This document shows, piece after piece, positions 3,311-62,204 of a stretch of DNA of 64,000 bases. Origin of the DNA: Eledone cirrhosa. Lineage: Eukaryota. The notes below the pieces were generated by a model, which was not told where the DNA came from, made no database searches, and was given only the letters and a program-made list of their open reading frames with translations. The position numbers were made by a program, and so were the translations under genes. The stretch spans positions 261,578,001 through 261,642,000 of the forward strand of contig OZ024743.1 of NCBI GenBank assembly GCA_964016885.1, written 5' to 3'. Position 1 is the stretch's first letter. Each line of letters opens with the position of its first letter.

Positions 3311-5179
3311 CCCTTTAGCATTTGAACTGGCCGTATCCGGCCAGAATTCTCTCATCTCTTTCTGTTCTAACCGGTCATAATCAGCTGATGTTAAGGTATT
3401 GTTCTCAAAATAAATATCAAAATCTCATATTTTCAATATTGTACGACAACTACAGGAGAAGTACCTAGCTAAAAGTAAACCCCTATACTTAGCTTTTGTT
3501 GACTTGGAGAAAGCCTTTGACAGAGTCCCACGCCCCATTATCTGGTGGGCTCTCAGAAAACTAGGTGTTAATGAATGGCTTGTGAGAGCTATACAAGCCA
3601 TGTATAAAGAAACAGTCAGCAAGGTTAGAATTAACAACGAATATAGTAAAGAGTTTAGCGTAAAAGTTGGTGTTCATCAGGGCTCTGTCCTGAGCCCCCT
3701 CCTATTTATTATTGCCCTTCAGGCTATAACAGAGGAGTTCAAGACCGGCTGCCCATGGGAACTCCTATACGCAGATGACCTAACGCTCATAGCTGAATCA
3801 ATGGCTGAACTAGAGAAGAAATTCCAAACATGGAAGCATGGCCTAGAATCAAAAGGCCTTAAAATTAACCTGTCTAAGACTAAAGTTCTAATTTGTAGGA
3901 AGGAAAATAGGGCACTGGTCCCATCTGGGAAATGGCCATGCTCAGTGTGTAGGAAAGGAGTAGGCAGAAACTCCATTTTATGTCCCAAATGCAAAGTATG
4001 GGTGCATAAAAGATGTAGTGGGATCACAGGTAAGCTAACTAAGAATATAGATTTTATATGTGGCCGGTGCTCAGGTGCAATAAGTAGCAGCAAGTGCCCA
4101 CAGAATACTAGCTCATTCCATTGTACAGATGGTTCTATAAAAATAGTGGACACCTTCCATTACCTGGGTGACAAAATCAGCAGTGGTGGAGGGTGCTCTG
4201 AAAGTACAGTAGCTAGAGTCAGAACGGGATGGAAAAAGTTCAGAAAGCTTATACCACTATTGGCCGCTAAAGGGTTCTCTCTAAAAATGAAAGGCAGGCT
4301 GTATGATGCCTGCATACGAACAGCAATGTTACATGGCAGTGAGACATGGGCATTGTGTGCAGAGGATATACGCAGACTGGAGAGGAACGAAGCTTGCATG
4401 CTCCGTTGGATGTGTAATAGTAATATACGTGAACGGCAAAGCATAAATGAACTAAGGGAGAAATTAGGAATAAGAGGAATCAGATGTTGTTTATTTGAGA
4501 GAAGACTACGTTGGTATGGTCACGTGATGAGCATGAAAGACGACAGCTGTATAAAAAAGTGCAGGGCAATAAAAATAGACGGTAGCCACGGAAAAACCTG
4601 GGACGACTTGATAAATTCCGACCTCACACACTTACACCTCTCCAAGACAATGTCACTGGACCGAGATCTTTGGCGCTACACAGTAATACAGAAGACCCGC
4701 CTTGCCTAAGTACAAAGCGAAACCTACAGTCAGTAGGCACCTCTTAACAAAAATACACCCCCGTTCCATTACCCCCACCACGTCCACACCACCCCTTTCG
4801 ATGTAAAGTTATGTTGGTACCACAACATCCAGTCCTAAATAAATGAGGTCGTGTAGGTGTCACGACAAAAAAAAAAAAAAACATTCCACGCTGTAATGTG
4901 GCCGTGTAGGTAACACGGTAAAAAACTCCCAGTCCACACTGTAAACGTGGTTGGTGTTAGGAAGGGCATCCAGCCGTAGAAAACCCTCCAGACAGTCCTA
5001 TACGAGCAAGACAACCAATCTTGCTTCAAGTGGGAAAATTCCCGTCCAAACCCATGCAAGCGTGGAAGATGGACGTTAAACGATGATGATGATGATGATG
5101 ATGTAGGATAAATATGTGAGATAAAGCCTTTTCTGTGAAAATACAATAGTAAATATAGAGTAATGTGAATGATAAAGGG
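3311..5179. mobile_element. piggyBac-like MITE (TTAA|CCCTTTA...TAAAGGG|TTAA) split by an RTE insertion
   Basis: Halves 3311-3429 and 5105-5179 join to match the uninterrupted copy at 39159-39366; TTAA at 3307-3310 and 5180-5183. Confidence 0.85.
3430..5103 (+). mobile_element. 5'-truncated RTE-clade LINE (RT, PHD-like finger, 3' UTR, (GAT)n tail)
   Basis: ORF 3504-4709 has DLEKAFD, GVHQGSVLSPLLF, YADD, YLG, LRWYGHV; ends CGTTAAAC(GAT)n; highly similar to 54820-56472. Confidence 0.95.
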
Positions 5180-6905: not shown

Positions 6906-6945
<40 letters not shown>

Positions 6946-7079
6946 ATAAGTTGACGGGACTAGCATACGTTTCCCTGCTAGTACTGGCTGGATATCAGCG
7001 TACTTAATAGGTAAGGTTATGTAAAAATCCCAGTTATTTGCCCCTCTCTCTCTCTCTCTCTCTTTATATATATGTATAT

Positions 7080-11080: not shown

Positions 11081-13700
11081 GCCAGGTTCATCAATTATAG
11101 CAGGTGTAATGTTAGGATGAATGGTACTGTTGTGGTGTACATTCAGTTGTTGTGAGTGTACTCATTTGTGTATTGCTCGGTGATGTGGTTACTGTTGTAT
11201 AGAATGTAGGCAAAGGAAGATTGATGTGCCTAACATAGTGTGACCAGGGATTGTAGGTGTGCAAGTAAGTGAGTAACAATACCCCTTATGATGATGATGT
11301 GGCGGTTCCTTGGGTAAGAATTACACCTTGATCACGTTTATTTTAAAAAATGTATTTACCTAACTTCTCTTGACGGGATGGTACATGAGACAGTTGGCCA
11401 CTACATCTTAACTAGTTAGTATGAACTCTGCAGCTGCTTGGGTTGACTGGGAGCAGATTATTTGTGAGTATTTCTTCCTTTGTCTCCGAAACTTGAGAAT
11501 GAGCAGATGGCCGTTTGATATGGAAAAATTTCAGACATCAATATGTCTGAAATTTTTCCATATCAAACGACCATCCCGTCAAGAGAAGTTTGGTAAATAC
11601 ATTTTTAAAAATATCTATGCAAGCAAACTCGCCTACATATCATACTTGATACATAACATCACACAATTCAACTCTCATTCTTCGTGTATTATCATTATAA
11701 CTCCGATTAAAATTATATTTAATAAATTAGTAACATAGCGGTCTTGTGTATTGTGTTATTGTAATTTATAAACTTCATTTCCTACGTGATCAAGGTGTAA
11801 TTCTTACCCAAGGAACCGCCACATCATCATCACCATCATCATCATCATAAGGGGTATTGTTACTCACTTACTTGCACACCTACAATCCCTGGTCACACTA
11901 TGTTAGGCACATCAATCTTCCTTTGCCTACATTCTACACAACAGTAACCACATCACTGAGCAATACACAAATGAGTACACTCACAACAACTGAATGTACA
12001 CCACAACAGTACCATTCATCCTAACATTAGACCTGCTATAATTGATGAACCTGGCAACCTCTACAATATATTTGTTCTTTCATCTATGCACAACTTGCAG
12101 GATTTAGTTCCATTTACGTATGGTTTCGAATTTTCTGAGGATTTTCCATTGGATGGAAAAGTTCATGCCCGCCTCCTTGAGTGACGGTACGTGGCTTTCC
12201 AGCTTTGTGGTCGATCACTTTTCTGAGTGTCTGAAAGTCGTCTGATGGTTAAGGAAGCGTTTTTTAAACCAGCCCTCCAACATACCTACATATGTCTTGA
12301 CCTCTTACCGTTGATTCTGCCAGGTGGATGTAACTTCAGCCTCGTAGACTACTGAGGGTGTGTTAGATTTTTGTAGAGGGCATGATTCTAGTTTTCTGCA
12401 AGAGCATCTGGGTGAAGGAGCACTCTTGGTGGTGATGTGGACTTTCATATTTTTAGCACAGGAATATCCGAGTTTCACCCTGTGTCTGTTGAAGATAGAT
12501 CTGTATTTATGCCCTATAGGGAAATGCTTGACTAGGAGTGTTAAGAATTTCTTACCTAAATTAGTTCTAACTCCTAGCGAGAAGGGTGGGCAAAACTAAA
12601 TTATTATTTAATTTCTATTTTTCTGTCTATTGGTAGTGTGATGCTGGTGAGGGAAGTAGGACATTTTTAATGATAATCCACTGTTGGTTAACGCTGTGTT
12701 GTATGATGCCGCTTTGTCAAACATCGCCTTGTTAGAGGAAAGATTTGAGATCCTAGTGCTGATGTTCTTGACGAAGTTTTTATAGATCGTAGACAGGTGG
12801 CATGAGTAAATATTTCATTGAGTTTGTGTAAATGTCTGAATGTGAAATGCGAAGGTCTAAGTTGATATCTAGTAATTTGCGCTAGTTAGATTGGTGGCTA
12901 CATTAATCTTAAGTCCTAACTCATTGAACGTGGCTATCAGGTTTTTCCTAAACCGGTCTGTCGTGATCGCTTGTATGGAAGGCCTGGAATTTGACTCGCA
13001 ACATATCTAATATAAATAAACCAACCAAATCGCATACATCAGCACTATCGAATGGTCCCATCGAGACATCGAATAGTTCTGAGGTAGTTGATTTTTTTGC
13101 CCAGGCTACTCCGTTATTGAAAAGCCTGTCCAAGTCATAGACGGAGGTGTATGTAGTGGCGAACTCCAAAGCTTTATCCAAAAGGGTCACAGAGATCGAT
13201 GCGTAAAAGTCCACTATATCGAATTTCGTGAATCTAGATTTGTTGGTTTCAAATGAGTTAAACCACTTGCAACAGGGTCGCTGTTTTCCCATTGGGAAGG
13301 TTATATTTTTTCCTAATTGTCCTGACTAGTCCTCTAAGTACAGATTTGTTAACTAGCCCTATCTCTGTCCTTGCTAGATTTAATACTCTACATGTAGGGC
13401 TAGTAGCAAAATCGGCTTTGTGATCCTTAAGGTTGATAAAAGTCTCACACATAGCTATGTATTCTCGTTTTCTATCTACATTAAGGGTGGAGGTTAGGTA
13501 TTTGGCTTCACTATTGATGTTTAGACATTCAGACAAGCGATCGACCACAAGGTTGGAAAGCCACGTATGGTCACTCAAAGAGGCGGTCGTGAACTTCTCC
13601 ATCAAATGGAAAATCCTCAGAAAAATCGAGATCATACGCAAATGGAACTAAGTCCTGCAAGTTGCGTTTGATGAAAGAACAAATATTTTGCAAAGATTAC
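11081..13700 (-). mobile_element. decayed Penelope-like element (Naiad-type RT + GIY-YIG) with inverted terminal segments
   Basis: Minus strand: INLKDHKADF..PTCRVLN, KFDIVDFYASI, FDVSMG.FDSADVCDLVGLFIL, CSCRKLESCPL, VYEAEV..TYVG..FKKRFLNH, SCKLCIDER; frameshifted; inverted copies at 11081-11337 and 13521-13690. Confidence 0.85.
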
Positions 13701-16981: not shown

Positions 16982-17016
<35 letters not shown>

Positions 17017-17102
17017 TATATGAAGTATTACCGTAGGAAAAGTAAGGCAAAAGAGAGTGCTCTCTGTAGGCTACAAAGCTTTTTAGTTATGTAATAAACA
17101 AC

Positions 17103-17272
17103 ATAAGATAATTATTTCATTTACCAAAGGTTTCACGAAGACGGACGAGCCTGGCACAGACGTCTGACTTCAATCGTCAGAATAAAATTTCATTCTGACG
17201 ATTGAAGTCAGAGGTCTGTGCCAGGCTCGTCTGTCTTCGTGAAACCTTTGGTAAATGAAATAATTATCTTAT
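17103..17272. ncRNA. 170-bp palindrome containing two divergent type I hammerhead ribozyme motifs
   Basis: Plus strand: TTTCATT-CTGACGA(17195)-stem II-GAAA(17241)-CCTTTGG-TA-AATGAAA; mirror copy on minus strand (TCGTCAG 17174-17180, TTTC 17131-17134). Confidence 0.82.
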
Positions 17273-17331
17273 TCCAATACTGGAATTGAACCATCAAGAC
17301 CGTTGAGGTATGTCATACACCAAATCATGTA

Positions 17332-17393
17332 TTTTATCTGACGAGGACGTACTGAAAAAACAGCACAGTACCTTCGAAATATATATAATAAAA
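17332..17393 (+). ncRNA. type I hammerhead ribozyme motif
   Basis: TTTTAT-CTGACGA-GGACGTACTG..CAGTACCTTC-GAAA-TATATA-TA-ATAAAA; all three stems pair; homolog at 28193-28254. Confidence 0.82.
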
Positions 17394-17453
17394 CATATAT
17401 TTTGAATATGTGAATGTCTTCATTTATTAATATTCTGAATAACATTAATAACT

Positions 17454-17637
17454 GTTTCTACTTTAGGCACAAGGCCAGCAATCCCCCAGTGCATTACTGG
17501 TACTTTATTTTATCGACCCCGTAAGGATGAAAGGCAAAGTCAACCTCGGCGGGATTTGAACTCAGATCATAAAGGGACGTAACTATGCTGGAAAGCATGG
17601 CGTCCGACCCTCTACCGATACTGCCAATCCACCGCCC
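17454..17637 (-). mobile_element. full-length SINE with 20-bp TSD
   Basis: TCTGAATAACATTAATAACT at 17434-17453 and 17638-17657. Confidence 0.93.
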
Positions 17638-18868
17638 TCTGAATAACATTAATAACTCCAGAAAACTTCATTGTAGAGTGCTTTTAATCTATTGTAAAAC
17701 TATATTCATTGAGTAATCAATGAACCATATTAATCTTTGGTTATATATATATAACATATATTCATCTAGTTAGTCATTTAACAGTATACATAGACGGACA
17801 GACAGATGGATGAATATATATATAATGAAAAAGATAGATAGATATATAGATGGATAGATGGATAGATAGATAGAGAGGGAGGGAGAGAGAGCAACAAGAC
17901 GGGAAGAAAAAAAATGAGAGATAAGCAATATATCAAAAAGAAAACCCTAGAGAGTGAAATATATAGTAAACAAAAATAAAGATACAGCTAGATTAATATA
18001 CAGTAGCAGAAATTTCTAGATATCTCAGAATGTTAAAGTAAGGTAAATAGAAGTATATTCTCTTTATATAGCTATAATATAGAACCGAGATTCATTCTTA
18101 CTGTTGACTTTTTATTTCACATAGACATCGATTTACAGAGCAAACTAATTTCTAACACAGTTGTAGAACATTCTCACTGAATTAATGACTCGATTAGACT
18201 AATCAAGTCAATCTTTGGAAATCACTACGGCTTCGGTAAATTATTATCGATACCATTCATTCCAGTACAAATTTTTTTTTTTTTAATTTGTGGAGCTGGC
18301 ATAAGGTTTTAACGGTGACTATTTTTAGCACTCTGGTTAACCTGAGCATTTGTCAGACAATATGATTTATAATTTTATATATTAATGAAAATATATGTAA
18401 TTCTGCTCCTAACATAACATTTTAATTGAGCTGATTTATTTAGACGTAACGTGCTGCTGCTTCTAGCAGTCTCGTTGGCCTACCCGTATCCTATTATATC
18501 GTCCTTCCCATGTGTTTTTACATTGTGTTGAATCTATGGTGGTTAGTCGTTCCCAGTGCATTTAGTAAGACATTCTACCGAAGAGGAGTAGTTTTGCCTT
18601 AATGGTGCCGATTATCCAATATTGGCGCTGTTTCTCTTACACTTTGAAACAGCTGTATAGAATTTTGGAATCGGTCTTTTACCATCTTCGTTTACTTACT
18701 TTCCATTATTTTTTGTCAATGTACCTATCATAGGGAAATTAAGAATCGTTTTTACCATTTTATGTATATCAGTTCATTCACTTACTTTCTGGTCTTCTTA
18801 TGTCATTATACCTATATATACACATGGAATTTGGTTACAATTTGTCTAGGAAATTTTTACTTTTATAT

Positions 18869-26948: not shown

Positions 26949-28192
26949 AATTTTTCACTTTTTCTGTTTTTGTCTCATGTCAATAATTTAATTCTTTATA
27001 AAGTCAGGCCGTTCTCTCCCTCAGACACACGCACTCACTCTTTTCTCACCTTCCTTTGAAAAAAATAATAAATTCCTCTTTCTACATCATTTCGCTTTTT
27101 CCCTCTCTCTCTACAGTTCTTTCATTCAGTATTTCTATTTCATCTCCCATCTAATTTTCGCACACTGAATCTCTTAGCAATTTTCTATATCACTTTTTTC
27201 TCTAGTATCTCACCTTTTCACTTATGTCTTTCTCTTTATTTCACTTAATTGTCTATCTTTCTATATCTTTTTATTGGACTGCCCCATCTCTCTCTCTCAT
27301 CTTCTCTCTCTTCACCTTCCCTTTTCTATGTTTACTTTTTCTCCATCTTCCCTTCTCTGTGTCTACCTCTCTCTCTCTTCACTTTCTCTTTACATCTCAC
27401 TACCTTATGTTTTTCTCTCTCTTGGACTGCCTCTCTCACTCTCTACTTTTCACTAACTTTCACATGTTTTTCTATCTCTTGGAATGTCTCCGTCTCTTTC
27501 TCTTTATCTTTCATTTTCCATTCCTTTCACTATTTCTTTCTTCTCTGCTCTCATCTATACACATTTTCTCTCTTCGAAATGTTTTTTTTTTCTTTTTTGT
27601 ATTTCTCAAACTTTCGAAGTTTATTTTTCTTTGATCACTCTCTCTTTTCCCCACACGCTTTGTCATTTTATCTCTCCCTCTCTTTCCTTCTCTCTCTATC
27701 TCTCTCTCTCCCCATCCCCTTTTTCACTGCAAAACTTTTACATCTTTCCTCTTTCTCTCTTCTCTATTTACTCATTCACAATTCTGTTCCCTAACTATTC
27801 CTTATCTTACTACCATATCTATCTAGGCACTAGCATCTCCTTTCTGTCTCTCCCGCACACTAAATAAATATCTGCCTCTCTGTCACCTGTCACTAAACAA
27901 ATTTCTCTCTCTCGTCATCTTTTCTTTATTCGGGAAAAACGACCCGGTTTCGATTTCCAGTCCTTCGTTGCAGTTAATGAAGCTACTTCATTTTACATCT
28001 TTTTTACGTTGAATAACATGCCCTTGAGGAAGTAAGGCATGAACGTCATCACATGTCTATTTTCTTGCCCTTCTCTTTCTTTTCTCCCTCTATCTCTCTC
28101 ACATGTGTGTGCGTGTATATATATAGATATATATATATATATTATTCAAAATGTTAACAAATGAAAAATATTCGCATTATCAAAATATATAC

Positions 28193-28254
28193 TTTATTAT
28201 ATAGATTTCAAAGGTACTGTGTTATTTTTTTCAGTACGTCCTCATCAGACAAAA
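28193..28254 (-). ncRNA. type I hammerhead ribozyme motif, homolog of 17332-17393
   Basis: Minus strand: TTTTGT-CTGATGA-GGACGTACTG..CAGTACCTTT-GAAA-TCTATA-TA-ATAAAG. Confidence 0.75.
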
Positions 28255-28299
28255 GGAAAACTATTCGTTGAGTAATCAACGAAGCATATTAATCTTTGG

Positions 28300-28337
<38 letters not shown>

Positions 28338-29218: not shown

Positions 29219-31460
29219 TATCATCATCATTTTACGTCCGCTTTTCCCTGCTTGCAAGGGTGGGACGGGTCTTATTCAGCACAGCATCTCTCCACTTGTC
29301 ACGGTCCTTCTTCATCTTCACCTTCACTGTGAGCTTCTGAGGTCTGTTCTCACCACCCCCGCCCATGTTTTTCGTGGTCTACCCCAACCACGTCTTCCTT
29401 CAACTGGCATTTCCTGGCACTTCTTCACCCATCGGTCATCCTCCATGCATATCACATGTCCATACCACCACAGTCACCTCTCTCGCACACTACATTCTAT
29501 CTCTCTCAACACATCCATGCTGGGTCGTTCATGCACATTGACATTGCACATCCGACGGAGCATGCTTGCCTCATTTCTCTCCAGCCGTTGCATATCCTCT
29601 GCAGTTGCTGCCCATGTCTCACTACCATGCAGCATCGAGCTCCTCACACAGGCATCATATAACCAGCCTTTCGTACGCAGGGAGAAACCCTTCTTCGTCA
29701 GCAGAGGAAGCAGCTCCCTAAACTTCTTCCAACCCGTCCTTATTGTAGATACTATGGCCTCGGAACCCCCCCCCCCCCCCCTCCCGTGCTAATCTGATCT
29801 CCTAGTTACCGGAAGCTATCCACCACTTCTATAGCACCGCCTGCATTTGAAAAATGTATCTATCAATGCGACTTCTACTGTCTAATTTCTCTGTCCATCT
29901 ACTGCATACATATTTCTCCCTACCTGTTAGTTTGCCTGCTATCCCACTACATCTCTTGTGTACCCAGCATCTGCATTGTGTGCATTTTATAGAATTTATA
30001 CCAATTCCTTTTCTGCATATCGAACATGGCCATTTCCCTGACGGAATCAGAGTTTTGTCCTCTTTTCTACTCATCAACACTTTTGTCTTAGCTAGGGTCA
30101 CTCTCAGTCCTCTTGCTTCCAACTGCTGTTTCTATAGCCAGAATTTTATTCTCTAGCTCCTCTACTGATTCAGCTATAAGAACCAGATCGTCAGCATAGA
30201 GAAGTTCCCATGGACAGCCAGTCATAAACTCTGTTATGGCTTGGAGGACTATAATGAACAAGAGCGGGCTGAGAACTGAACCTTGATGTACTCCTACTTG
30301 TATCTGGAATTCTTCACTAAACTCCATTCCTACCCTGACTTTGCTGACAGCACTGCTGTACAAAGTTTGCACTGTCCTCACAAGCCATTCCTCAACACCT
30401 AGTTTCCTTAGGGACAACCAGATGACAGATCGGGGTACCCTGTCAAAGGCCTTCTCTAGGTCAACAAAGGCTAAGTATAGTGGCTTATTCTTCTCTAAGA
30501 ACCTCTCTTGTAATTGTCTCACCAAGAAGAGGGCATCTGTTGTACTTTTCCCAGGCACAAAACCAAACTGCATCTCATCTAGTTTGATTCTTTCTCTAAT
30601 TAGTTGTGCTAATATCCTTTCTGCCACTTTCATAACCTGATCCATCAGTTTTATACCCCTATAATTGCTCCTCTCCAGAGCATCCCCTTTACCTTTGTAC
30701 TAATTTATGAGAATACTGCTCCACCAGTCTTTGGGTATGACAGCGCCATATATAGCCTGATTGATGATGCATGCAACCAGTTTAGTGCCTACGTCCCCTG
30801 ATGCTTTCAGCATCTCAGCAACTATCCTCGATCAGCATCTCAGCAACTATCCCCAACGGTCCAGCAGCCTTACCATTTTTCATTTCCTTAATCGCCTCTT
30901 GGACCCTATATTCATCAATCTCAATAGCTGGTTCCTTTGTTGGATCTACTGAGGGTAATTTCTCTCTCCCATTCGTTCTCCACATTCATCAGTCTCTCAT
31001 AATGACATTTCCAGACCTCCTTTTTCTGATCATTCGTGACACTAAGTACACCGGCATCATTCCGGACACATTTATCTCCAACAACATCCTGATTTGCATT
31101 GACACACTGCCTTGCAATGTGGAACACTGCACGCCTCTGATCTTCCTGTCGCAGAACATTGGCAAACCTTCTACTCTCAGCCTTCCTGCGTGCTAAGTAC
31201 ACCTGATGTCTAGCTTCTCTCTTAGCGGCTGTATATCCTTCTCTACTCGCACCCTTTTTCCAAGCCTTCCATGCTAGTCTTTTGTCTCTAATGGCCTTAT
31301 CTACTGTGCTGTTCCACCACCAGGTCACTCTCTGTCTGGTTGGAGCTCTGTTTCATCAGTAGCCTGCAGTTAGTTGTCATATAAGAAATTCCAGTTATTA
31401 TCTATGTTTTACGTCTCTAAATCGTCTTCTTTTTCGTCATACACATCTTGAAGGGCTTTC
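29219..31460 (-). mobile_element. decayed RTE LINE (second PHD-bearing subfamily)
   Basis: MTWWWN..., QFGFVPGKSTTDA, DLEKAFD, GVHQGSVLSP, YADD, WPCSICRKGIGINSIKCTQCRCWVHKRC; frameshifts; (GAT)n tail at 29219. Confidence 0.93.
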
Positions 31461-45008: not shown

Positions 45009-46261
45009 AAGAATCTCTGTAATCATTGCCATCAACTTTTGCTACCATCGCCATATCACTCTTGGTTGCCTTTAGCAGGATCCACTCTGTTACAAGCATT
45101 GGGGAGGTGTGGGTGGTGGCAGGTTTTTGGTTTGGGAATATCTTCCTTTGCGCAGTTCATCAGTCTTCTCCCATGACCCCTCTCTCAAGACCCAGTAAAA
45201 GATTATGAGCAATGCTCTTCCCAAAAGAAAGCTATTAGAAGTCATTTAGATTGGCAGACTCGATAGGTTGATAGATACATCTTGAGGACAGAATACTTCA
45301 TGGTATGGTACCTGTTTAGGATTTTTATGTTCTGAATTCAAATCCCACCTGGGTCAGCTTTGCGTTTCATCTTTCTATGATCGGTAACATGGAGTACAAG
45401 TAAAGGTAGTGGGGGAGGGGTAGTCTCTACGATTACTCCTCCAACCTTCCTTCCTGAGATTGCTGGCCTTGTTCCTAACTTAGAAACCCTTATATTGTCA
45501 AAATACAATGAGACTGGGTGGATGAATGGGTGAGTGGGAAGGTGGGTTTGGAAATACAAAAAACAATAAGTAGAAATATTCAAATTGTAACCTTCTTGTC
45601 TATATATGGAGAAGATGGAAAATAAACAAAAATATATTTTTAAAATTATACGCAAATAATCAAAAGCAATATCAGTTTGTTTTAGTTATGTTTTTGTTTT
45701 TATTGTCCATGTGAACACTTGCAGCCCTAATCTAGTTTTTTTGCCCTGTTTTTTAGATGCTAGATGTTTATAAGATTGTATTTATCTTGTCTTTTACTAT
45801 TTCCTGCCATACAACAACTGCCAGACTTTGTTAATTCCTGTGTCTGTAGTTTGTAAAAACCCTGATAAAAACTACTGCTGGTACCACCACCTCTACCCCC
45901 TCCCCACATCACCACTGCTGTAGCTACCACCTCTACCTCACCCACACATCACCACTGCTGTAGCTACCACCTCTACCCCCCATCACCACTGCTGTAGCTA
46001 CCACACACTACAGCTCTATTTCTCTCTCTTCCTCTATACATCTATCTCCTCACCTCACCATAGGCTATCTCTCTCTCCCTAACCCCCTCCTCACACCACA
46101 GGCTCCCCCCCCCCTTCACCAAAGCCCCCCCCCCTCACAGACTATCTCTCTCTCTCTCTCTTACTGCAGGCTATCTCTTCTCTCTACTCCCTTCACCACT
46201 GGCTATCTCTCTACCCCACTCTTACCACAAGTTATCTCTCTACCCACACCCTGACAGGCTA

Positions 46262-47345
46262 GGTCTCACCACAGACTATCTATCTCACCCCTCTCACCAC
46301 AGACTATCTATCTCACTCCTCTCACCACAGACTATCTATCTCACTCCTCTCACCACAGACTATCTCACTCCTCTCACCACAGACTATCTATCTCACTCCT
46401 CTCACCACAGACTATCTATCTCACCCCCTCTCACCACAGGCTATCTATCTCACCCCTTCTCACCACAGGCTATCTATCTCACCCCTTCTCACCACAGGCT
46501 ATCTATCTCACCCCTTCTCACCACAGGCTATCTATCTCACCCCCTCTCACCACAGGCTATCTATCTCACCCCCTCTCACCACAGGCTATCTATCTCACCC
46601 CCTCTCACCACAGGCTATCTATCTCACCCCCTCTCACCACAGGCTATCTATCTCACCCCCTCTCACCACAGGCTATCTATCTCACCCCTTCTCACCACAG
46701 GCTATCTATCTCACCCCCTCTCACCACAAGCTATCTATCTCACCCCCTCTCACCACAAGCTATCTATCTCACCCCCTCTCACCACAAGCTATCTATCTCA
46801 CCCCCTCTCACCACAGGCTATCTATCTCACCCCCTCTCACCACAGGCTATCGCACCCCCTCTCACCATCTCACCACAGGCTATCTATCTCACCCCTCTCA
46901 CCACAGGCTATCTATGTCACCCCATCTCACCACAGGCTATCTATCTCACCCCTCTCACCACAGGCTATCTATGTCACCCCATCTCACCACAGGCTATCTA
47001 TCTCACCCCTTCTCACCATCTCACCACAGGCTATCCATCTCATCCCCTCACCATCTCATCCCCTCACCATATCACCCCCTCACCATCTCACCCCTCTCAC
47101 CATCTCACTACAGGCTATCTATCTCATCCCTCTCACCACAGGCTATCTATCTCACCCCCTCTCACCACAGACTATCTATCTCACCCCTCTCACCACAGAC
47201 TATCTATCTCACCCCTCTCACCACAGGCTATCTATCTCACCCCCTCTCACCACAGGCTATCTATCTCACCATCTCACCACAAGCTATCTATCTCACTCCA
47301 TCTCACCCCTCTCACCACAGGCTATCTATCTTACCCCCTCTCACT
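46262..47345. repeat. minisatellite, 28-29 bp unit
   Basis: (CTCTCACCACAGGCTATCTATCTCACCCC)n, about 35 units, degenerate flanks. Confidence 0.97.
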
Positions 47346-48569
47346 ACCTCTTAGGTACAAGCCCTTATCTTTTATTTTACATAAGGCTTACATAGAGAGG
47401 TATCTTAATAGAATTTATGATAGTTTTCCTTGTTTCTAATAAAATGGCCTTATTTCTAATAAAATACATGTATATATTAATTACTGTATATACTTGTATA
47501 TAAGCTGAGAAATTTGATTGTAAAATGGGCATCTGGAGTGACTATTTTACAATGAAACACTGATTGTCTACATTTACTTTGTTGTCATGAGTGTTGTTTA
47601 TGCATTCCCTCGAGAACATTCCCAACAAATCTTTATAATTTGAATTTTTTAAGACAAATATTCCCTGCACACATATGAATGCACCTGTGTGCCGACTGTT
47701 TTTCTCTGTGACTTATACTTTTACTTTCAATCTTACTTCTGTCTTGTATTTTATTGCTCCCATTCTCTTTCCCTTCTCTCGCTCTCACTTACTCTCTCTC
47801 CTTAGTCAATTTTTTTCTTTCAACTATTACCTATTTATATGAGCATAGTTTCAATCACCCCTAGTATTTTTAATGATCTCCATAATGTTTAAGGAAAAAA
47901 AGTTTTTAAAAGTAATATCTTAAACTCAAAATGGGGTAAAAGGGTAGACTAATATATCAATTAATAATTTGACTGATTATTAAATTTTAACCAGCTTATA
48001 TGGTTTTAAAAAATTCGAACTGAGTGTACTAAAGAAAAAAATTTTTTTTCCCCAAATTATACCAGTGTTTAATATTAAACTTTTTAGCTAACTGAATGAG
48101 GTGGCATGCTGGCGCGAAATGTGTATAATTGTAAAAATCTTCCTAAAGCTTTAATACTTGCATGACGTTAAATTGTTTCCAAATTTTTTAAAATTTGAAC
48201 AGTTTCATACAAAAATATGTGCACATAGGTTTTTCTGACTTAATATTTTTTCTTTCAATCCTATGTAAGATTGAAATCTTACTTCTGATTTTATTTTATT
48301 GCTCTCGTTCTTGCCCTCGCTTTTTTTCCACCTCCTCTCTCTCCCTCCTACTACATGAATCCCCACACAAAGGTTTCTTATTCGATCTCTTGCTTTCATA
48401 GTACTCCTAGCATGTGAGTGGCTGGAAGTAAACTTGTTGAAACTTAATGTAATGGAAACTCATTACGTAATGAAGATGTGAAACAAAAGCTATACTCTAA
48501 ATGTCACTTAAAAGATTTTAAACATCAATATATTAAAACTTCATAAATATATTTTGTGAAATATACTCA

Positions 48570-50157: not shown

Positions 50158-50534
50158 AATATATATTTTTAATGAATTTGTCAGTTATTCCTTTTATAAG
50201 TATGCATAGTAGTATACTCATCGAATTACTTGTCTATGAATGTGTGGAGAATTATGTAAATGGTACAAGGAACTTTGGGCAACAGAAGCAACTGAAGTGT
50301 AGAATTTGTGCAACCGTGTATACTAATTGGACATCTTGGGTCCCAAAGACCAGTGCTATCTTTTATGAATTTCCCGAACAATACTCAAAGCATGATTCAA
50401 TATATATATAACAAATAATCCTTGGTATAAATGGCTGTTATATAGAATTTAAACAGCCATTGTTATCAGTCACATTGACTTTGACACATTTTATTTTTAT
50501 TTTTCCTCTCTCTCTACTCCACTTTTATATAAAG

Positions 50535-52523
50535 ATGGAGTCTAGTGTTGACCAAGAAGTTGATGAACAGGCTAAATTAAAGTCTAGTTCATTATCCCCC
50601 AAAGTTGCTAGACCAAAACTGCCTGCTTTTTCCTCAAGCTTTAGACCATCGAAAAGTCGCTCTAAAACAGATCCCGGCCACGCTGGTGAAATCAATCGGG
50701 CTGTTCTGGAGGATAGTAAACAAAGAAAACATGGTCGTCAAAGACTATCTCGATCTCAACCATCGAAGAGTTCCCAAGCACCAACATCAACTCCTACATC
50801 TCCTGTCACTGACACACAGAAGTCAGGATTTTCTCGGAGACAAAATCGAAGTCTAAAGCTTACAGAGTTAACAGATAAATTAAAATGTGGTCCTAATTCA
50901 AATGATATTTCATGCAACATTCCATCATCCAGTGATTTGTCAACAGTAACAGCCTATGGTACTTTAAGGAAAATGCGTAATATTGAAGATTTTAGTCAGT
51001 GTGAGCAAATTTTGGACTCGGCAGACGACAGTCTGTTTGAAAGCAGCAGTTCAAGGATGTCTGAAGATTTACAAAAGATGGAATCACCAGAGGCTGTGCC
51101 ATATTACCCTCATAAAGAAACAAAAGATTCCATGTCAGAACAATGTCTAAGTAAACTGGAAAGTTCCTCTGTTTCTTCAGATTGTCTGCCTTCTCCAGAT
51201 GACAAGTCATTGGATGATGATGGAACTGGTACCAGTGAATCAGATAACAGCTCAACAACAAGTGGCCCCTATATTTACCAGCCACTGAATCGGGACTCTG
51301 AGTTTTTCAAACTTGCTAAAACTGCCCCACAACGAAGAACTGGTATAACTACATTAGCAACACGTAACAAAGTACAAGCCATTTTTGGTACTAATTATCC
51401 ACAACTGACTGGTTCACAGCAGTCTGATGAAGAGAAACGCTCAGAAGAACATTCAGGTGGCCGCCCTCCTCAACGGTCTGAGTCTGTTCACGTACCAGGC
51501 AGACAACGAAAACCTGACCGATTCATTACACGTTCTTCAAAGCATAAAGCGTCGTCAAAAGAGGAGGGCTCGATTGATAGTAATGGATTTGGTACTTTAA
51601 AATCTGAAGAAACCTCAGAAAGTGCACCATCAGACCAATGTCAAGATAATATCTCACTGTTAGCTGCAGGCAGCTGCCATTCTACAGATGATCAAATTAA
51701 CCCTGATGATGCAGTGCATTTTTCTGAATATGCAGATGATAATATTGTTATGGAAATCTCAGACAGTGAAAGATTTGAAAAGAAAAATGGAAAATTAACA
51801 AAACCTAAATCAATAAGTGACCCAAGTGCTGACAAGACAAAAGTTTTGTCTGAAATTAGTAAGGAAATCAGTTCATCACATGCACACAGTTCACCTGTCT
51901 TGTCACGTGATCTAACAGAAGATGGGGGGCCTTTACAGCAATTCCAAGAAACCAATAACCCTCAACTTGAACTAAGCCCGTATTCAGAAATAGTTCTTTC
52001 ACATGCAAGCCCTAAATCCTCAAACCCAGAACGCCGTATATCTCAAGAAAGCCAAAGATGTCAAAGCCCAGGCTTGGAATCGACAATAGAAGAAGGAGAT
52101 GAAAGTGAACAATATTCTGACGATTCCTTATTAAAACCTGACAAGCTGATCTATATAGGATCATCTGCCCCAACAACGCCTCACAATCAGTCTCCAACAA
52201 GTACCCTGGAACGTCCTCCACACAACCTCTTGAGTGTTCCCATGACGCGGAAACCCATTTTAAGAAGTATGAGTTCAGCGAGTGTCCTTCAACATGACAT
52301 GCGCATGTTCAACGTTGCAAACAAAGAAAATGATGTTGTTCGTAAATTCAGCATAAATTCTGATGACTCAATTCCAGGAAATATGAAGCCTGGTACGTCC
52401 GTACCAGAATTTGCTACACCTCTCAGTGACAATGGTTCTTATATCACTATAAGCATGCCAGATGTCTGGAAACAGAATGCAACTGTATTTGATTCTCCAG
52501 AAAGGGCTCAAGCATATGCTAAG
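50535..52523 (+). CDS. large coding exon (663 codons, phase 0) of an unidentified host gene; Ser-rich, probably disordered N-terminal region
   Basis: Stop-free 2-kb frame in AT-rich DNA; polypyrimidine tract then AAAG|ATG; ends AAG|GTAAGA; no TE motifs; no recognisable domain. Confidence 0.88.
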
Positions 52524-52799
52524 GTAAGATCCTTCTTCTGAACCTTATTCTAGCTTGATCTATAAATATATATATATATATATGTATTATAATATATATA
52601 ACTCAATGCTATTCTATAATTCTGTCTGGTTGTTCTAAATAATCTTCTTGTATTTTAAAATCCCATTATTCGCTTATTACTGTTATATGCTTGTCCAATT
52701 ATGCCCAAAATTCGAAGATTTTATTTAAACCCTCCCGCTAACTACCCCATACCCCTCCCACCTGCCCCCACTCTCCACCATTATTATTTGGACCAATAA

Positions 52800-55700
52800 T
52801 AAGTCAGCGGCTTATGCTATCACTTCTCCTGGTTGCTTTTCGATATGATGGATGGACTAAGGAATTCTGGAGAGTCTGAAAAATCTGGACACTCAGTGAC
52901 AATGCCAAAGATAAAGACAAATTCACCTCATGCTGCCGGATGAAAAGGCAAGGACTCCTCCTCCTCTTTGTTTCGGCTGCGAATGGCCAACATAACCCCA
53001 ACCCCATTCCCCTCACCGCTCCCCACGCCCCACCGTTCCCACCCACCAAACGCAATCCAAAACTTCAGAGTTGGTACCATGAATGTAGGCACCTTAAAAG
53101 GTCGCTCTAACGAGGTTGTAGAAATGCTTGAACGTAAGGAGGTTGATGTTTGCTGTATCCAAGAGACCAGGTGGAGGGTGGGTCTGCTAGATTCATTGTG
53201 GGTAAAAAAAGATGCTATAAGCTTTTCTGGGTGGGAAATGACAATGGGCTGGGTGGGGTAGGAATCATGTTAGCAGAAAAATGGGTAGATGAGATAATAG
53301 ATGTAAATAGAGTGAACGACAGAATAATTAAAATAAGACTTGTCCTAAATAGAACTACTGTGATAGTAATATCTGCGTATGCACCCAATCCGGACTGCCT
53401 GGCGCTATAAAAGACAGATTCTATGAGACATTGATGCTCACTACCTCCCAAATAACCGACAGTGACTACATAATTATTGCTGGCGACCTAAATGGTCACG
53501 GACAACATTGCGACGGCTTTGACGGAATCCATGGAGGCTATGGGTTTGGTACTAGAAATGAGGAAGGCTTCAGAATCCTGGAATTCTGTGACGCAAATAA
53601 CCTAACTATCTGTAACACTAACTTAAAAAAACGAGACAATCACTTGATCACCTATAGATCAGGGGAACACACCAGTCAGATAGATTATATCCTTACCAGA
53701 AGACGTGACAGAGTGTCTGTTGTAAACACTAAATCCCTCCCCCATGAAGAATGCACCTCCCAACATAGACTCATAGTCAGCGACCTCATAGTCAGGACCT
53801 CATAGTCAGGACAAGACGTATTCGACAACAGAGGAGGACTATCCTCAGGAGGAAAATATGGAAGCTAAAGGACCCCACAACCAGTAATAAATTTAAAAGC
53901 ATATTACTTGATGCTTTCGACAGTAAGGAAGAGCAATTAGAGTCGTACAATATAGAGGAACAGTGGGAATTCCTGAAAGTTAACCTGGTGAAGGCGGCAG
54001 ATAAAATCTGTGGCTGGAGCAGGCCTATAGGCAGGAGGAGAGTAATGTGGTGGTGGAACAGTAAGGTGGAGGAGTCAATTAAGGCCAAAAAGCAGGCTTG
54101 GAAAGTATGGCGGAATGGGGGAAGTAGAGAAGACTATCAAGTGGCCAGGAGGGAAGCTAGGAGACAAGTGTACTTCGCAAGAAGGGAAGCAGAGGAAAGA
54201 AAGTGCAAGCATGTTCTACAACGCGAGGACCAAAAGCGTGAGGTGTTCAGGATTGCTAGGCAATGTGTCAAGGAAAACCGTGATATTGTCGGGGAGAAGT
54301 GTGTCCTTAATGATGATGGTGTACTTGCCATCACTGACGCTGATAAGAAGGTAGCTTGGAAGTGTCACTACGAAAGGCTACTAAATGAGGAGAATAAATG
54401 GGAGAAAGACAGTCTTCCCCACATCGATCCAATAGAGGGACCAGCAGTGCTAGTTGAAGGTAGTATAATAAGTAAGGCAATCAAAGATATGAAGACGGGT
54501 AAGGCGGCTGGGCCTTCGGAAATAGTTGCTGAAATGCTGAAAGCATCTGGAACGGTGGGACACACTATGGTCACCCGGATAGTAAACCAAGTCATACAGA
54601 ATGGGGCTGTTTCGAAGGACTGGCGTAGCAGCAGCATCATTAACTGCTACAAGGGTAAAGGAGATGCCCTAGATAGGGGTAACTATAGAGGCATTAAATT
54701 AATCGACCAGGTCATGAAGGTCACAGAAAAAGTAATAGCGCAACTAATCAGAGTAACGAATTGATCTAGATGAAATGCAGTTCGGGTTTGTGTCGGGTAA
54801 AAGTACCACAGACGCTCTTTTCATTGTATGACAACTACAGGAGAAGTACCTAGCTAAAAGTAAACCCCTATACTTAGCTTTTGTTGACTTGGAGAAAGCC
54901 TTTGACAGAGTCCCCCGCTCCATTATCTGGTGGGCTCTTAGAAAACTAGGTGTTGATGAATGGCTTGTGAGAGCTATACAAGCCATGTATAAAGAAACAG
55001 TCAGCAAGGTTAGAATTAACAACGAATATAGTGAAGAGTTTAGCATAAAAGTTGGTGTTCATCAGGGCTCCGTTCTTAGCCCCCTACTATTTATTATTGC
55101 CCTTCAGGCTATAACAGAGGAGTTCAAGACCGGCTGCCCATGGGAACTCCTATATGCAGATGATCTAACGCTCATAGCTGAATCAATGGCTGAACTCGAG
55201 AAGAAATTCCAAACATGGAAGCATGGCCTAGAATCAAAAGGCCTTAAAGTTAACTTGTCTAAGACTAAGTTCTAGTTTGTAGGAAGGAAAATAGGGCACC
55301 GGTCCCATCTGGGAAATGGCCATGCTCAGTGTGTAGGAAAGGAGTTTTATGTCCCAAATGCAAAGTATGGGTGCATAAAAGATGTAGTGGGATCACAGGT
55401 AAGCTAACTAAGAATATAGATTTTGTATGTGGTCGGTGTTCTGGTGCAATAAGTAGCAGCAAATGCCCACAGAATACTAGCTCATTCCATTGCGCAGATG
55501 GTTCTATAGAAATAGTGGACACCTTCCGTTACCTGGGTGACAAAATCAGCAGTGGGGGAGGGTACTCTGAAAGTACAGTAGCTAGAGTCAGAACGGGATG
55601 GAAAAAGTTCAGAGAGCTTATACCACTATTGGCCGCTAAAGGGTTCTCTCTAAAAATGAAAGGCAGGCTGTATGATGCCTGCATACGAACAGCAATGTTA

Positions 55701-56472
55701 CATGGCAGTGAGACCTGGGCATTGTGTGCAGAGGATATACGCAGACTGGAGAGGAACGAAGCTTGCATGCTCCGCTGGATGTGTAATAGTAATATACGTG
55801 AACAGCAAAGCATAAACGAACTAAGGGAGAAATTAGGAATAAGAGGGATCAGATGTTGTTTACTCGAGAGAAGACTACGTTGGTATGGTCACGTGATGTG
55901 CATGAAAGACGACAGCTGTATAAAAAAGTGCAGGGCGATCAAAATAGACGGTAGCGACTGAGTAGGCAGACCCAGAAAAACCTGGGACGACTTGATAAAT
56001 TCCGACCTCACACACTTACACCTCTCCAAGACAATGTCACTGGACCGAGATCTTTGGCGTTACACAGTAATACAGAAGGCCCGCCTTGCCTAAGTACAAA
56101 GCGAAACCTACAGTCAGTAGGCACCTCTAACAAAAATACACCCCTGCCCCACTACCCTCACCCCATCCACACTACCCTCTTCAATGTAAAGTTATGTTGG
56201 TACCACAACATCCAGTCCGAAACAAATGAGGTCATGTAGGTGTCACGACAAAAAAACACAGTCCATGCTGTAATGTGGCTGTGTAGGTAACACGGTAAAA
56301 ACCTCCCAGTCCACACTGTAAACGTGGTTGGTGTTAGGAAGGGCATCCAGCGTATAAAACCCGCCAGACAATCCTATACGAGCAGGACAACCAATCTTGC
56401 CTCAAGTGGGAAAACTCCCATCCAAACCCATGCAAGAGTGGAAGATGGACATTAAACGATGATGATGATGAT
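52800..56472 (+). mobile_element. near full-length RTE LINE (APE endonuclease + RT + PHD-like finger), inactivated by frameshifts and stops
   Basis: GTMNVGTL..CIQETRW, AGDLNGH, QIDYIL, SQHRL, YKGKGDALDRGNYRGI, DLEKAFD, YADD; (GAT)n tail; 5' end may extend to about 52576 (possible low-complexity TSD ATAAATATATATAT). Confidence 0.95.
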
Positions 56473-58460: not shown

Positions 58461-58727
58461 TTGTATGTTTTTTTTTGTTTTTTTTTATGCTGTTACTGAC
58501 AGGACATCATATTTCCTGGTGGTGGTGGTGGTGAAGCTGGTAGTTTTTTCTTTAGAAATAGTGAGACTACTGTGTTCTGTGAAAGGACTGATGTTATAGT
58601 AGGAGGACTGACAGATAAGTTGACTCATTCCTGTTACTGCCACTCTTCAAATTTGAACACTAGCGTTTTTTAGAAAATCTTTAGGAGAAACATTTTCCAA
58701 TGGGCAACAAATGTTTATCCTGCAGTA

Positions 58728-59597
58728 ACTTTGTAGGTGACCTCTGTCACTAGCCTGGTCACTTCTGTGTAGGTGACCTCTTTGTCACTCGCCTGGTCTC
58801 TTCTGTGTAGGTGACCTCTTTGTCACTCGCCTGGTCACTTCTGTGTAGGTGACCTCTTTGTCACTTGCCTGGTCACTTCTGTGTAGGTGACCTCTGTCAC
58901 TAGCCTGGTCACTTCTGTGTAGGTGACCTCTGTCACTAGCCTGGTCACTTCTTTGTAGGTGACCTCTGTCACTAGCCTGGTCACTTCTTTGTAGGTGACC
59001 TCTGTCACTAGCCTGGTCACTTCTTTGTAGGTGACCTCTGTCACTAGCCTGGTCACTTCTTTGTAGGAGACCTCTGTCACTTGCCTGGTCACTTCTTTGT
59101 AGGTGACCTCTCTGTAAATTGCCTGGTCTCTTCTGTGTAGGTGACCTCTTTGTCACTCGCCTGGTCTCTTCTGTGTAGGTGACCTCTTTGTCACTCGCCT
59201 GGTCACTTCTGTGTAGGTGACCTCTTTGTCACTTGCCTGGTCACTTCTGTGTAGGTGACCTCTGTCACTAGCCTGGTCACTTCTTTGTAGGTGACCTCTG
59301 TCACTAGCCTGGTCACTTCTTTGTAGGTGACCTCTGTCACTAGCCTGGTCACTTCTTTGTAGGTGACCTCTGTCACTAGCCTGGTCACTTCTTTGTAGGT
59401 GATCTTTGTCACTTGCTTTGTCACTTGCCTGGTCACTTCTTTGTAGGTGACTGCTTTGTCACTTGCCTGGTCACTTCTGTGTAGGTGACCTCTTTGTCAC
59501 TTGCCTGGTCACTTCTGTGTAGGTGACCTCTTTGTCACTTGCCTGGTCACTTCTGTGTAGGTGACCTCTTTGTCACTTGCCTGGTCACTTCTGTGTC
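58728..59597. repeat. minisatellite, 39-41 bp unit with internal hairpin
   Basis: (GCCTGGTCACTTCT.TGTAGGTGACCTCT(TT)GTCACT.)n, about 21 units. Confidence 0.97.
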
Positions 59598-62204
59598 TGA
59601 TCACTTACAATAATAATTGTTGCCCAATTTGCTATAAACAAATAAATTTTGCAAGATTCTCACTTGCAGAGGAGCAGAAGATATGGGTGACATATTCTTA
59701 TCATCATTTTACATCTGTTTTCCCTGCTGGCATAGGTTGGACATGTTTTTATGGACTAGGTCAATACTTAATCTGAACTACTGTCCTCTTAGATGGGTTG
59801 GAAGACCATGTCTTGCATAATGCATTCCATTTTTGGTATGGCTTCTATAGATTCCCTTAATGCCAACCACTTTTCAGAGTGTACTGGGTGCATTTTATAG
59901 TGCTGTGAACACTAGAAAGGTTGTCATGTCTTCATTATGATTGTAGCACTCTCACAACCCTTTTTCCTGCTTTCTATGGCTGGGTGCAATTGCTAGTTTC
60001 TAAACACAATCATACACTGATCTGTTATGGTTTAGTAATGGGAGGGGTTGCTAAAGACAAGATGTTCTTTGTGAAATACAATTTAGACTCTGATGTTACA
60101 AATGGATGTCACACACATACACACTCACACTCACTCTCATCTTTCTTTTTACTATAACTGTTTTGAATGACAGACAATGCATCATAGTACACAGGGAGAG
60201 AGAGAAAATGTTTATGTATGAGAGAGAAAGAGAGAAAGAATTCAAGAATGATAGACTAGATAAAGACAAACAGGAGAAAGAGAGAGCGGAAGTTAAAAGG
60301 TTTACAAACATAAGAGGCTAGAAGACACAGATCAATGGAATTTGTGTTATTGTGTAACCTTTGCACCTCTTTTCGATTGTTGAGGATTGAAGGAAAGAAA
60401 ATATCCAAGTTGTTTAAAAGAAATGATTTCTCATAAAAGAGTCAGCAGAACTGAGGATGGGAAGCAAACATAAAAGATAAAACAACAGCATAAAATAAAA
60501 AACTTAGAAAATGAAGCAATAACAATAATAAATTTGAGTCACTGAGGGAGTCTCTTCATGGTTCCTTGACTTACTAAAGGATAGCAACCAATTCTTTGTC
60601 AAATCAATTTCTACCTTAAAATAATAGAACATGAGATAATGTAGTCATAGAGGCACTGAATAAAAGTGATCATGGCTGGAATGCCTTTGATCATTGTTTG
60701 GCACACTCTTTACTGACCAGCAATTAATATCAAGCTGCCTGAAACTGCTCCTGGTTCGAGAATACAAAACTTTATTTTAAAGTGTTTATATTTATTGAAA
60801 TTCTATCTTAATTTTATGTAAGAAGCTTTGTTGAATTATACTCAAAACACAAGCTATTAAGTTGAAAGTTAGTTATATTACTAAAGTTAGTTATCGAGAA
60901 AGTCTATATTACTAAAGTATATTACTACATTCCTCCAAAACTTGATTATTTACTCAAATTATTTGAAATTTGGAGTTAAAGCTCTTTTCTATATAAAGTA
61001 ACGGCAATACAAGAACTGAAAACAAATAATCCTGAAAAATGACATTATTTCAGATGGTTTGACCAATTTATTGAAGAGGAAACAACTAATTTTTTTACAT
61101 GTCATCTTTTTTACAGACAAAGTATGGTTGCATTTTATCTTTTGAGTTACATTGATTTTCAGAACACACAGTTGTGGTTGTCTGATAATTATTTTCCAAA
61201 TGATGTGAACATAATAGGCAGTGTATCTCATCAGAAATCTCGTTACAAAAGGGTTAAGCATATAAGTTATGCTGTGGAATGAATCATGGTTGTGATGGAG
61301 TAGGGAGTCTACCCCCTAATTTTGTTAAAAGTTGATTCACTTGGTTTGTGCATCCCATTTTTACAAAAAGAAGCACCAAAAAAATACAATGAGTTGTGCC
61401 AACACAGAGAAAAAAGAAAGCAACAAAGATGTTGCATTATTTCACTGATCACTATCATATAAACACTACACAACTCCATTACTCTCTCTCTCTCTCTATA
61501 CTTCTCTCTCTTTCTACATTATTGTTTAGTAGTGAAATTTAGTTACCCCTCTCCTCCACCCTATACTACTGTCCCTTGCTGACCAACTAGAAATGACTCA
61601 ACTGCTTATTAGTCAGTTTCAAGTTAAACACACTCCTAGTTAACATGTCATCTTCATTTACCAGTGTGTGTGTGTTTGTAGCATGTGTAAGCATGTGCAC
61701 ACACACACACACACGCATGTGTTTCTCTCTCTCTCTCTCTCCACACACATACATATACAGGGTGTACATACTTCAATACCATTTTAATAAATATTGCACA
61801 GGTAATAAAGGATGTATAAATTTTTTGTTGTGTACACACACACACACACATATATGTATATGACATATATATTTACATACTTGTAAACACACCCACACAC
61901 ACATTTCTGTACCTGTTCTGTCAATAACTATGGAATTATGTTTATCTTAAGTCTATTTCAAATGATTATAAAATTGAGGGAAAATATATAGGGCTGTGTT
62001 TATGGAAGTAAAGGAGGAATGATATTACTTTGTGTTATATTTAATCTTGGGATGAATAAGACTTGTCATTTCTTACTGTTTGTTAATATTTGTCCATACC
62101 CCCTCCCTACCCTCAATGTACTTCCACCCATCCCCATGACTGTCTTTTCCCAGCCCGGCTGATGATACAACTTGTGCCCAAGTATTGTAGTAAGGTGGTA
62201 GCAC

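Follow-up and report, generated by a model that had tools for sequence, protein, structure and literature searches.

The palindrome with a hammerhead motif on each strand in the window (the whole 64,000-nt stretch of Eledone cirrhosa DNA analysed here, contig OZ024743.1, positions 261,578,001 to 261,642,000) is, with a probability that can be put at roughly 0.8, the head-to-head 5' junction left by a truncated Hydra-clade Penelope-like element (PLE) inserted into a (TA)n microsatellite, likely formed by twin priming with joining at a microhomology. At this locus the insertion is dead and shows no sign of function or of selection on the copy. Inverted pseudo-LTRs (pLTRs), tails and pairs of hammerheads on opposite strands have already been published, and the locus is of a known kind, an inverted-pLTR PLE stump. 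What is new is an octopus Hydra family, some 7,000 related motifs and a strict rule by which one arm of an insertion has a tail and the other does not, a rule that favours twin priming from fixed sites.

Sequence comparison shows the two arms of the palindrome, 17103-17187 and 17188-17272, to be complementary at 82 of 85 positions, and each strand gives a full match to the hammerhead descriptor, as the sequence-only reading had described. The three mismatches fall at 17184/17191, 17162/17213 and 17143/17232. The boundaries given in that reading (17103..17272) were too narrow, the element extending over 17020-17272. In this copy the 65-nt tail is present on the left arm only (17020-17084), and the right arm, interrupted by a second element, stops 19 nt short of the point termed site 2 in Table 1, at +77 and not at +96. 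Fold-back chimeras can give perfect palindromes, and no independent contig crosses the exact junction: three contig sets from one sample contain the family, and none of them spans the junction of the window copy. Nevertheless, an artefact of sequencing or assembly is scarcely credible, since the arms differ at two sites away from the junction and have biologically fixed end points, and since inverted partners are found at 50 of 75 loci of the family, with a mean arm divergence of 5.6% in the 22 that were measured.

Table 1. Parts of the palindromic insertion and of the element abutting it, in window coordinates.
Feature	Position	Strand	Remarks
(TA)n target microsatellite, left end	16984-17019		From the sequence; same flank in most copies
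65-nt PLE tail, from putative RT start site 1 (17020) to putative site 2 (17085)	17020-17084	-	Copy ends cluster at both points
Long-arm pLTR segment, from hammerhead cut to site 2	17085-17121	-	Comparison of copies
Long-arm type I hammerhead motif	17114-17188	-	CUGACGA from 17180; expected cut after 17122
Junction of arms in the parent pLTR quasi-palindrome AATAAAATTTCATT	17181-17194		Probable microhomology join; junction hot spot
Short-arm type I hammerhead motif	17187-17261	+	CUGACGA 17195, U10.1 17202, U11.1 17240; expected cut after 17253
Rest of short (site-2) arm	17262-17272	+	19 nt short of site 2
5'-truncated, abutting copy of the second hammerhead PLE family	17273-17742	+	Canonical G10.1-C11.1; core 17338; own tail; ends in (TA)n
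Dispersed repeat of about 190 bp inside the second element	17454-17637		Flanked by a 20-bp duplication, 17434-17453 and 17638-17657

On the plus strand, stem I is formed by ATTTCATT/AATGAAAT (17187-17194/17254-17261), the core runs from CUGACGA (17195-17201) and U10.1 through stem II to U11.1 and GAAA (17241-17244), and the 3' part consists of stem III, CC-UUU-GG, followed by GUA and the predicted cleavage point; the minus strand has the equivalent layout. A scan of the 64-kb window with a type I hammerhead descriptor returned four matches, namely the palindrome pair and single motifs at 17338 (+) and 28248 (-). The motifs of the palindrome have the CUGANGA, GAAA and UH core of a type I hammerhead together with stems I-III, and 10.1-11.1, usually a G-C pair, is U·U in both arms. 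A search of the palindrome against Rfam, which the earlier reading had named as a check, gave no hammerhead match and only miRNA hairpin matches below threshold, so that the motif call rests on descriptor matching and on covariation within the family. When folded in isolation the plus arm is predicted to take up the hammerhead topology as its minimum-energy structure (-19.3 kcal/mol both free and constrained), and for the minus arm the hammerhead fold is predicted to lie 2.3 kcal/mol above the minimum. The entire palindrome is predicted to form a single hairpin of -144 kcal/mol, which beats the hammerhead fold by 104-106 kcal/mol. As the antisense arm is transcribed ahead of the hammerhead arm on either strand, read-through RNA of the locus is predicted to form an inert 81-bp hairpin, and here the model agrees with what had been suggested from the letters.

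The attribution of the hammerheads to the pLTR of a PLE is borne out by a colinear link to a PLE open reading frame (ORF). In the copy L103/L211 the last ORF codons (…RSCPHLKSHLL…) are followed in colinear order by the 3' UTR and by a hammerhead with 91% identity to the window arm. ORF end, 3' UTR and hammerhead all lie in one long inverted arm of L103, and it was through this arm that the parent was found, a search with the GIY-YIG Pfam profile having missed it. When the L103 3' UTR was used as a genome query, most matches contained ORF remnants. L231 runs from tail, 5' UTR and ATG through a broken RT-EN ORF and a long 3' UTR to a hammerhead of sister subfamily B and a further tail. Of its two tails, that at 2320-2385 leads into 5' UTR and ATG, while that at 6910-6975 lies 3' of the hammerhead; the sequence that follows the hammerhead therefore recurs upstream of the ORF, as in EN+ PLEs. 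L232 has, on the 5' side of its ORF, an inverted arm that matches the window arm at 94% identity. Also as in EN+ PLEs, remnants of a linked single ORF with an RT plus an EN of GIY-YIG type at the C-terminus are present in L231, L233 and L234, where they are colinear with hammerhead and tail, and 5'-truncated inverted copies with a one-ended tail occur, as detailed below. A 342-aa piece of the protein has 180 longer, full-length relatives of about 600-950 aa, nearly all of them unnamed. Pfam gave no RT or GIY-YIG match on four broken ORF pieces, and the RT motifs were taken directly from the sequence.

By these motifs, rather than by an RT tree, the palindrome family is assigned to the Hydra clade, which the accessible text of Craig et al. 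(2021, PMC8557442) defines by RWK, DKT, CxCx5C, CxxC and a CxH around the catalytic E and N, with no CCHH. Of 20 broken copies, MRWK is present in 2 and SDKT in 7, most of the remainder being 5'-truncated; the CxCx5C linker occurs in 10 of the 20, CxxC in 11, and a CCHH-type core in none. CxH was seen by reading the C-termini, the pattern count of 0/20 being due to a mis-sized pattern. The family shares the clade's preference for insertion into (TA)n, with flanks judged by eye and without a control count. An intact ORF belonging to the window's own subfamily did not turn up, all 20 of the long copies examined being broken. Two other clades were considered and rejected. Nematis, considered first, is ruled out by the clade definitions, the CX2-5CxxC linker and CCHH being absent; Neptune lacks support on the same linker and motif, and the Neptune-type ORF of L172 is unlinked to the palindrome family. 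Such ORFs close to family copies (L172, L191 and L208) are separate nested insertions and not the parent.

These loci hold several further structures. The Neptune-type piece of L172 (1779-4019) encodes 747 aa without a stop and has a 3' hammerhead-like motif in which UUGAAAA replaces CUGANGA; adjoining it is a 459-bp tandem dimer with U·U hammerheads that looks retrozyme-like (L172 5100-5150 and 5500-6420). Another locus, L305 (G000:C5:96507300-96514000), contains a nearly full-length Hydra-like ORF with a different stem II family 1.9 kb downstream. Finally, in L231 the region 1900-2500 is an inverted copy in which tail, 5' UTR and ORF start are fused to 3' UTR sequence, which suggests either an internally deleted non-autonomous derivative or a tandem or circular template.

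The palindrome is multicopy: a genome search with it yielded 1455 candidates, and each of the 40 that were scored matched on the two strands. With an exact 20-nt core pattern there were 89 matches, against 0 with its reversed control; by our own count they correspond to about 81 loci, of which 75 were analysed. The order within the copies is hammerhead, about 35 nt, site 2 (the first fixed end), the 65-nt tail, site 1 (the second) and (TA)n, the last of which masks target duplications. An inverted partner is present in 50 of the 75 copies and was not detected in the other 25. Where both ends of a partnered copy can be read, 43 of 44 combine one arm that bears the tail with one that stops at site 2; the full 50 are made up of these 43, one tail/tail copy and six with one end cut, and a stricter first pass gave 37 of the expected kind and one exception among 47. 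Unpaired copies terminate at either site (15 and 12 of 28), and the one-of-each rule is thus not a base-rate effect. The rule recurs in a related subfamily, where 16 of 28 tail-selected loci (nearly all subfamily B, with one duplicate and the window dropped) are partnered and 15 of the 16 partners end at site 2.

Unlike the ends, the junctions vary between copies, their position relative to the core lying between about +120 and -560, and the second arm is incomplete in many copies, which makes the palindrome a by-product of insertion. In view of this variation, the earlier proposal of a hairpin-versus-ribozyme switch, or of a unit propagated as a palindrome, is not supported. Some evidence does speak for a non-autonomous hairpin element (MITE- or retrozyme-like) that is copied whole, or for a bidirectional hairpin/ribozyme switch under selection: both cores are intact in the window copy, and several unlinked copies (L003, L006 and L008) have an identical perfect centre. 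Those three are different sequence variants, however, and such a unit would also have to be reconciled with the shifting junctions, with the copies that have no detected partner, with a hammerhead predicted to be unable to fold in the read-through transcript, and with the failure to observe any tandem retrozyme array of the palindrome family; this explanation is accordingly most improbable. Nor is there a sign of transcription starting at the centre, as had also been envisaged. The centre is more probably a microhomology junction within the quasi-palindromic AATAAAATTTCATT, and unjoined copies carry this same sequence upstream of the hammerhead core.

The lengths of the arms bear on how the inversion arises. 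The 5' extents of the two arms are independent (n=43), the site-2 arm being longer in 19 copies and the tail arm in 9, with the two within 8 nt of each other in 15; in these counts L095 was set by hand and L103 was scored as equal though its site-2 arm extends beyond the reference. The site-2 arm is thus more often the longer one, but not significantly so (p=0.09). In four of the 43 (L090, L107, L283 and L289) the inverted arm consists of the tail alone, with no sequence in common with the other arm. Tail-only inverted arms and independent extents are outcomes that fold-back copying of a cDNA would be unable to produce and that two cDNAs from opposite target strands could. This is a difficulty for an origin by self-priming, in which an antisense transcript or the first cDNA of the PLE folds back at the quasi-palindrome and is copied. 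Such a route, proposed on antisense RNA for rotifer Penelopes in the accessible text of Arkhipova et al. (2013, PMC3846280), would fit the hot spot of junctions at the self-complementary 14-mer, which is used by the window copy and by the 15 near-symmetric copies of the 43, and would fit the variants common to both arms. Yet fold-back of a cDNA cannot tail the shorter arm while leaving the longer arm untailed, as is seen in 19/43, cannot yield arms without common sequence, as in 4/43, and does not predict the tail/no-tail rule. Self-priming is therefore unlikely for the family, and it could apply to the symmetric class, window copy included.

The relationship between the arms was followed in the 22 copies with two cores, in which divergence within a copy (5.6%) compares with 9.3% between copies. 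Minor variants common to both arms of a copy number 57, as against a mean of 20.9 (maximum 36) in 2000 partner shuffles (n=22), and eight rare variants are present in both arms in 7 of the 22. In just 9/22, though, is a copy's own partner its closest arm, and the arms of one copy differ at a diagnostic site or sites in 9/22, L261 doing so at three. A single source RNA for both arms thus appears to be common, not universal; with concordance imperfect, two RNA templates or gene conversion may act.

According to the twin-priming reading, both nicked target strands would each prime reverse transcription of pLTR RNA during integration, with one cDNA beginning at the end of the tail (site 1) and the other at its start (site 2), and the two cDNA ends would then be joined by microhomology just upstream of the hammerhead. 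The hammerhead comes from the parent pLTR, in which its likely role is the processing of tandem transcripts. A PLE protein is described as cutting and extending both target strands in vitro, with reverse transcription beginning at two sites between which the tail lies (Frangieh 2024, PMC11167929). The accessible text of that paper gives the start site as no different between the two strands, so that the strict one-of-each rule is left unexplained by it, and reports that the PAc hammerhead is dispensable for insertion in vitro. A broader proposition is that every head-to-head PLE insertion reflects twin priming from two fixed sites, the end and the start of the tail on opposite strands, leaving one tailed and one untailed end, and that the thousands of octopus hammerheads with unpaired 10.1/11.1 are an active, little-studied variant; to this the balance of evidence inclines us only slightly. 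If two-site twin priming is true, the antisense self-priming model would give way to it, and tail, inversion and palindrome would share one explanation. The formation of PLE tails and inverted repeats is a stated open question in the PLE literature available to us, and hundreds of natural insertions with near-absolute one-of-each ends lead to a prediction that applies directly to the in vitro system already in use. A search of the literature outside subscription journals found, beyond the papers cited, no printed twin-priming model of PLEs, no data on 10.1/11.1 mismatches and no octopus PLE hammerheads.

The U·U at 10.1/11.1 had raised doubt about activity. Across 153 motif instances, a sample biased by the search patterns, 10.1/11.1 is paired in just 12 and unpaired in 141. 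Pairs 2-6 of stem II are retained in 134-148 of the 153, pair 2 being U-A in 54, C-G in 46 and U-G in 37, with slid controls partly high because of GAAG/CUUC repeats. By our own count from File S2 of Craig et al. (2021, PMC8557442), U·U occupies this position in 14 of 25 Hydra-clade families. On these comparisons U·U is typical of the clade and no sign of decay. A genome-wide pattern with the same stem III and U·U has 198 matches, and one with the same stem III and non-U at both positions has 6,989 (some double-counted; controls 0). Among 100 matches listed for the non-U pattern, no G-C was seen at 10.1/11.1 by our own reading, and there are at least 7 head-to-head pairs within 600 bp. Several stem II families make up the roughly 7,000 motifs, position 10.1/11.1 being A·G, C·A or A·A, and some of the families look young. 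A cephalopod genome thus holds a large reservoir of hammerheads without the usual G10.1-C11.1 pair, as well as many long perfect hairpins.

Other features of the window were noted in passing. The second hammerhead PLE family, represented at 17273-17742 and 28131-28302, has 1349 candidates, with copies about 98% identical and a palindromic stem III loop. It likewise forms head-to-head palindromes and has Hydra-like ORF remnants upstream in L291 and L292, and the copy at 28131-28302 looks like a case of a tail-only inverted arm; an automatic count of its ends (16/19) was set aside because the self-complementary site-2 region gives self-matches. The dispersed repeat within the abutting copy is presumably SINE-like. 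A broken Hydra-like PLE ORF on the minus strand (12064-13664, 42-52% to P0004) carries part of its own 3' ORF region in inverted form (12091-12235 against 13520-13664), and an inverted repeat with 219-nt arms, 99% complementary, and internal inverted segments occupies 11081-12055. Broken LINE-type RT/endonuclease ORFs, which from their motifs we take to be RTE-like, lie at 3414-4709, 30088-31352 and 53353-55961, and minisatellite arrays of 29-bp and 36-bp units at 46064-47439 and 58706-59753. The first coding exon of an ARHGEF17-like gene (50412-52541, plus strand, ATG at 50535) is found 33 kb downstream of the palindrome, its segment 50535-52535 being 89% identical to an Octopus vulgaris ARHGEF17-like protein.

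Twin priming is familiar from L1, where two target strands prime on one RNA and inverted segments are joined by microhomology, the second start being variable and the segments non-overlapping. In the PLE family, by contrast, the second start is fixed and the arms usually overlap, with a palindrome as the result. The Hydra-clade PLEs listed by Craig et al. (2021, PMC8557442), which include Hydra-1_Obim and Penelope-13_HM, share the common motif set, the C-terminal EN and the (TA)n targets with the present family, and likewise have a hammerhead at the 3' end, in which U·U is frequent below stem II. For Penelope-13_HM an inverted copy truncated at its 5' end is listed there, so that both strands bear a hammerhead. 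By eye, the palindrome family is distinct from Hydra-1_Obim, whose listed hammerhead and N-terminus differ, and it departs from the published Hydra PLEs in its long, microsatellite-rich 3' UTR, in a stem II of about 20 bp as against 3-7 and in a tail of 65 nt as against 30-40. The dual min-HHRs of Schistosoma mansoni (Cervera and De la Peña 2014, PMC4209133) are similar in that PLE hammerheads lie on opposite strands, 100-700 bp apart. They are described as minimal, with a conserved G10.1-C11.1, a palindromic helix III, action as dimers and weak cleavage in vitro, unlike the octopus motifs with their 3-bp stem III, non-palindromic 3-nt loop and unpaired 10.1/11.1. PAc Poseidon (Frangieh 2024, PMC11167929) offers a parallel in its two RT start sites around a tail, the cutting and extension of both strands and an AT-rich target; it belongs to another clade, and the accessible text of that paper makes no connection between its two sites and inverted copies. 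Non-LTR retrozymes (bioRxiv 10.64898/2026.07.22.740005) have a type I hammerhead and a PLE pLTR origin in common with the family, but are defined in the available text by two or more head-to-tail tandem hammerhead units, whereas the window locus is head-to-head with no tandem unit. A further likeness is to the inverted pLTR of Penelope (Arkhipova et al. 2013, PMC3846280; Craig et al. 2021, Fig. 2), likewise a head-to-head, 5'-truncated copy with a palindromic junction and a one-ended tail. Relative to the account of Arkhipova et al., the difference here is that 75 copies have been counted, and that their pattern favours twin priming over antisense self-priming.
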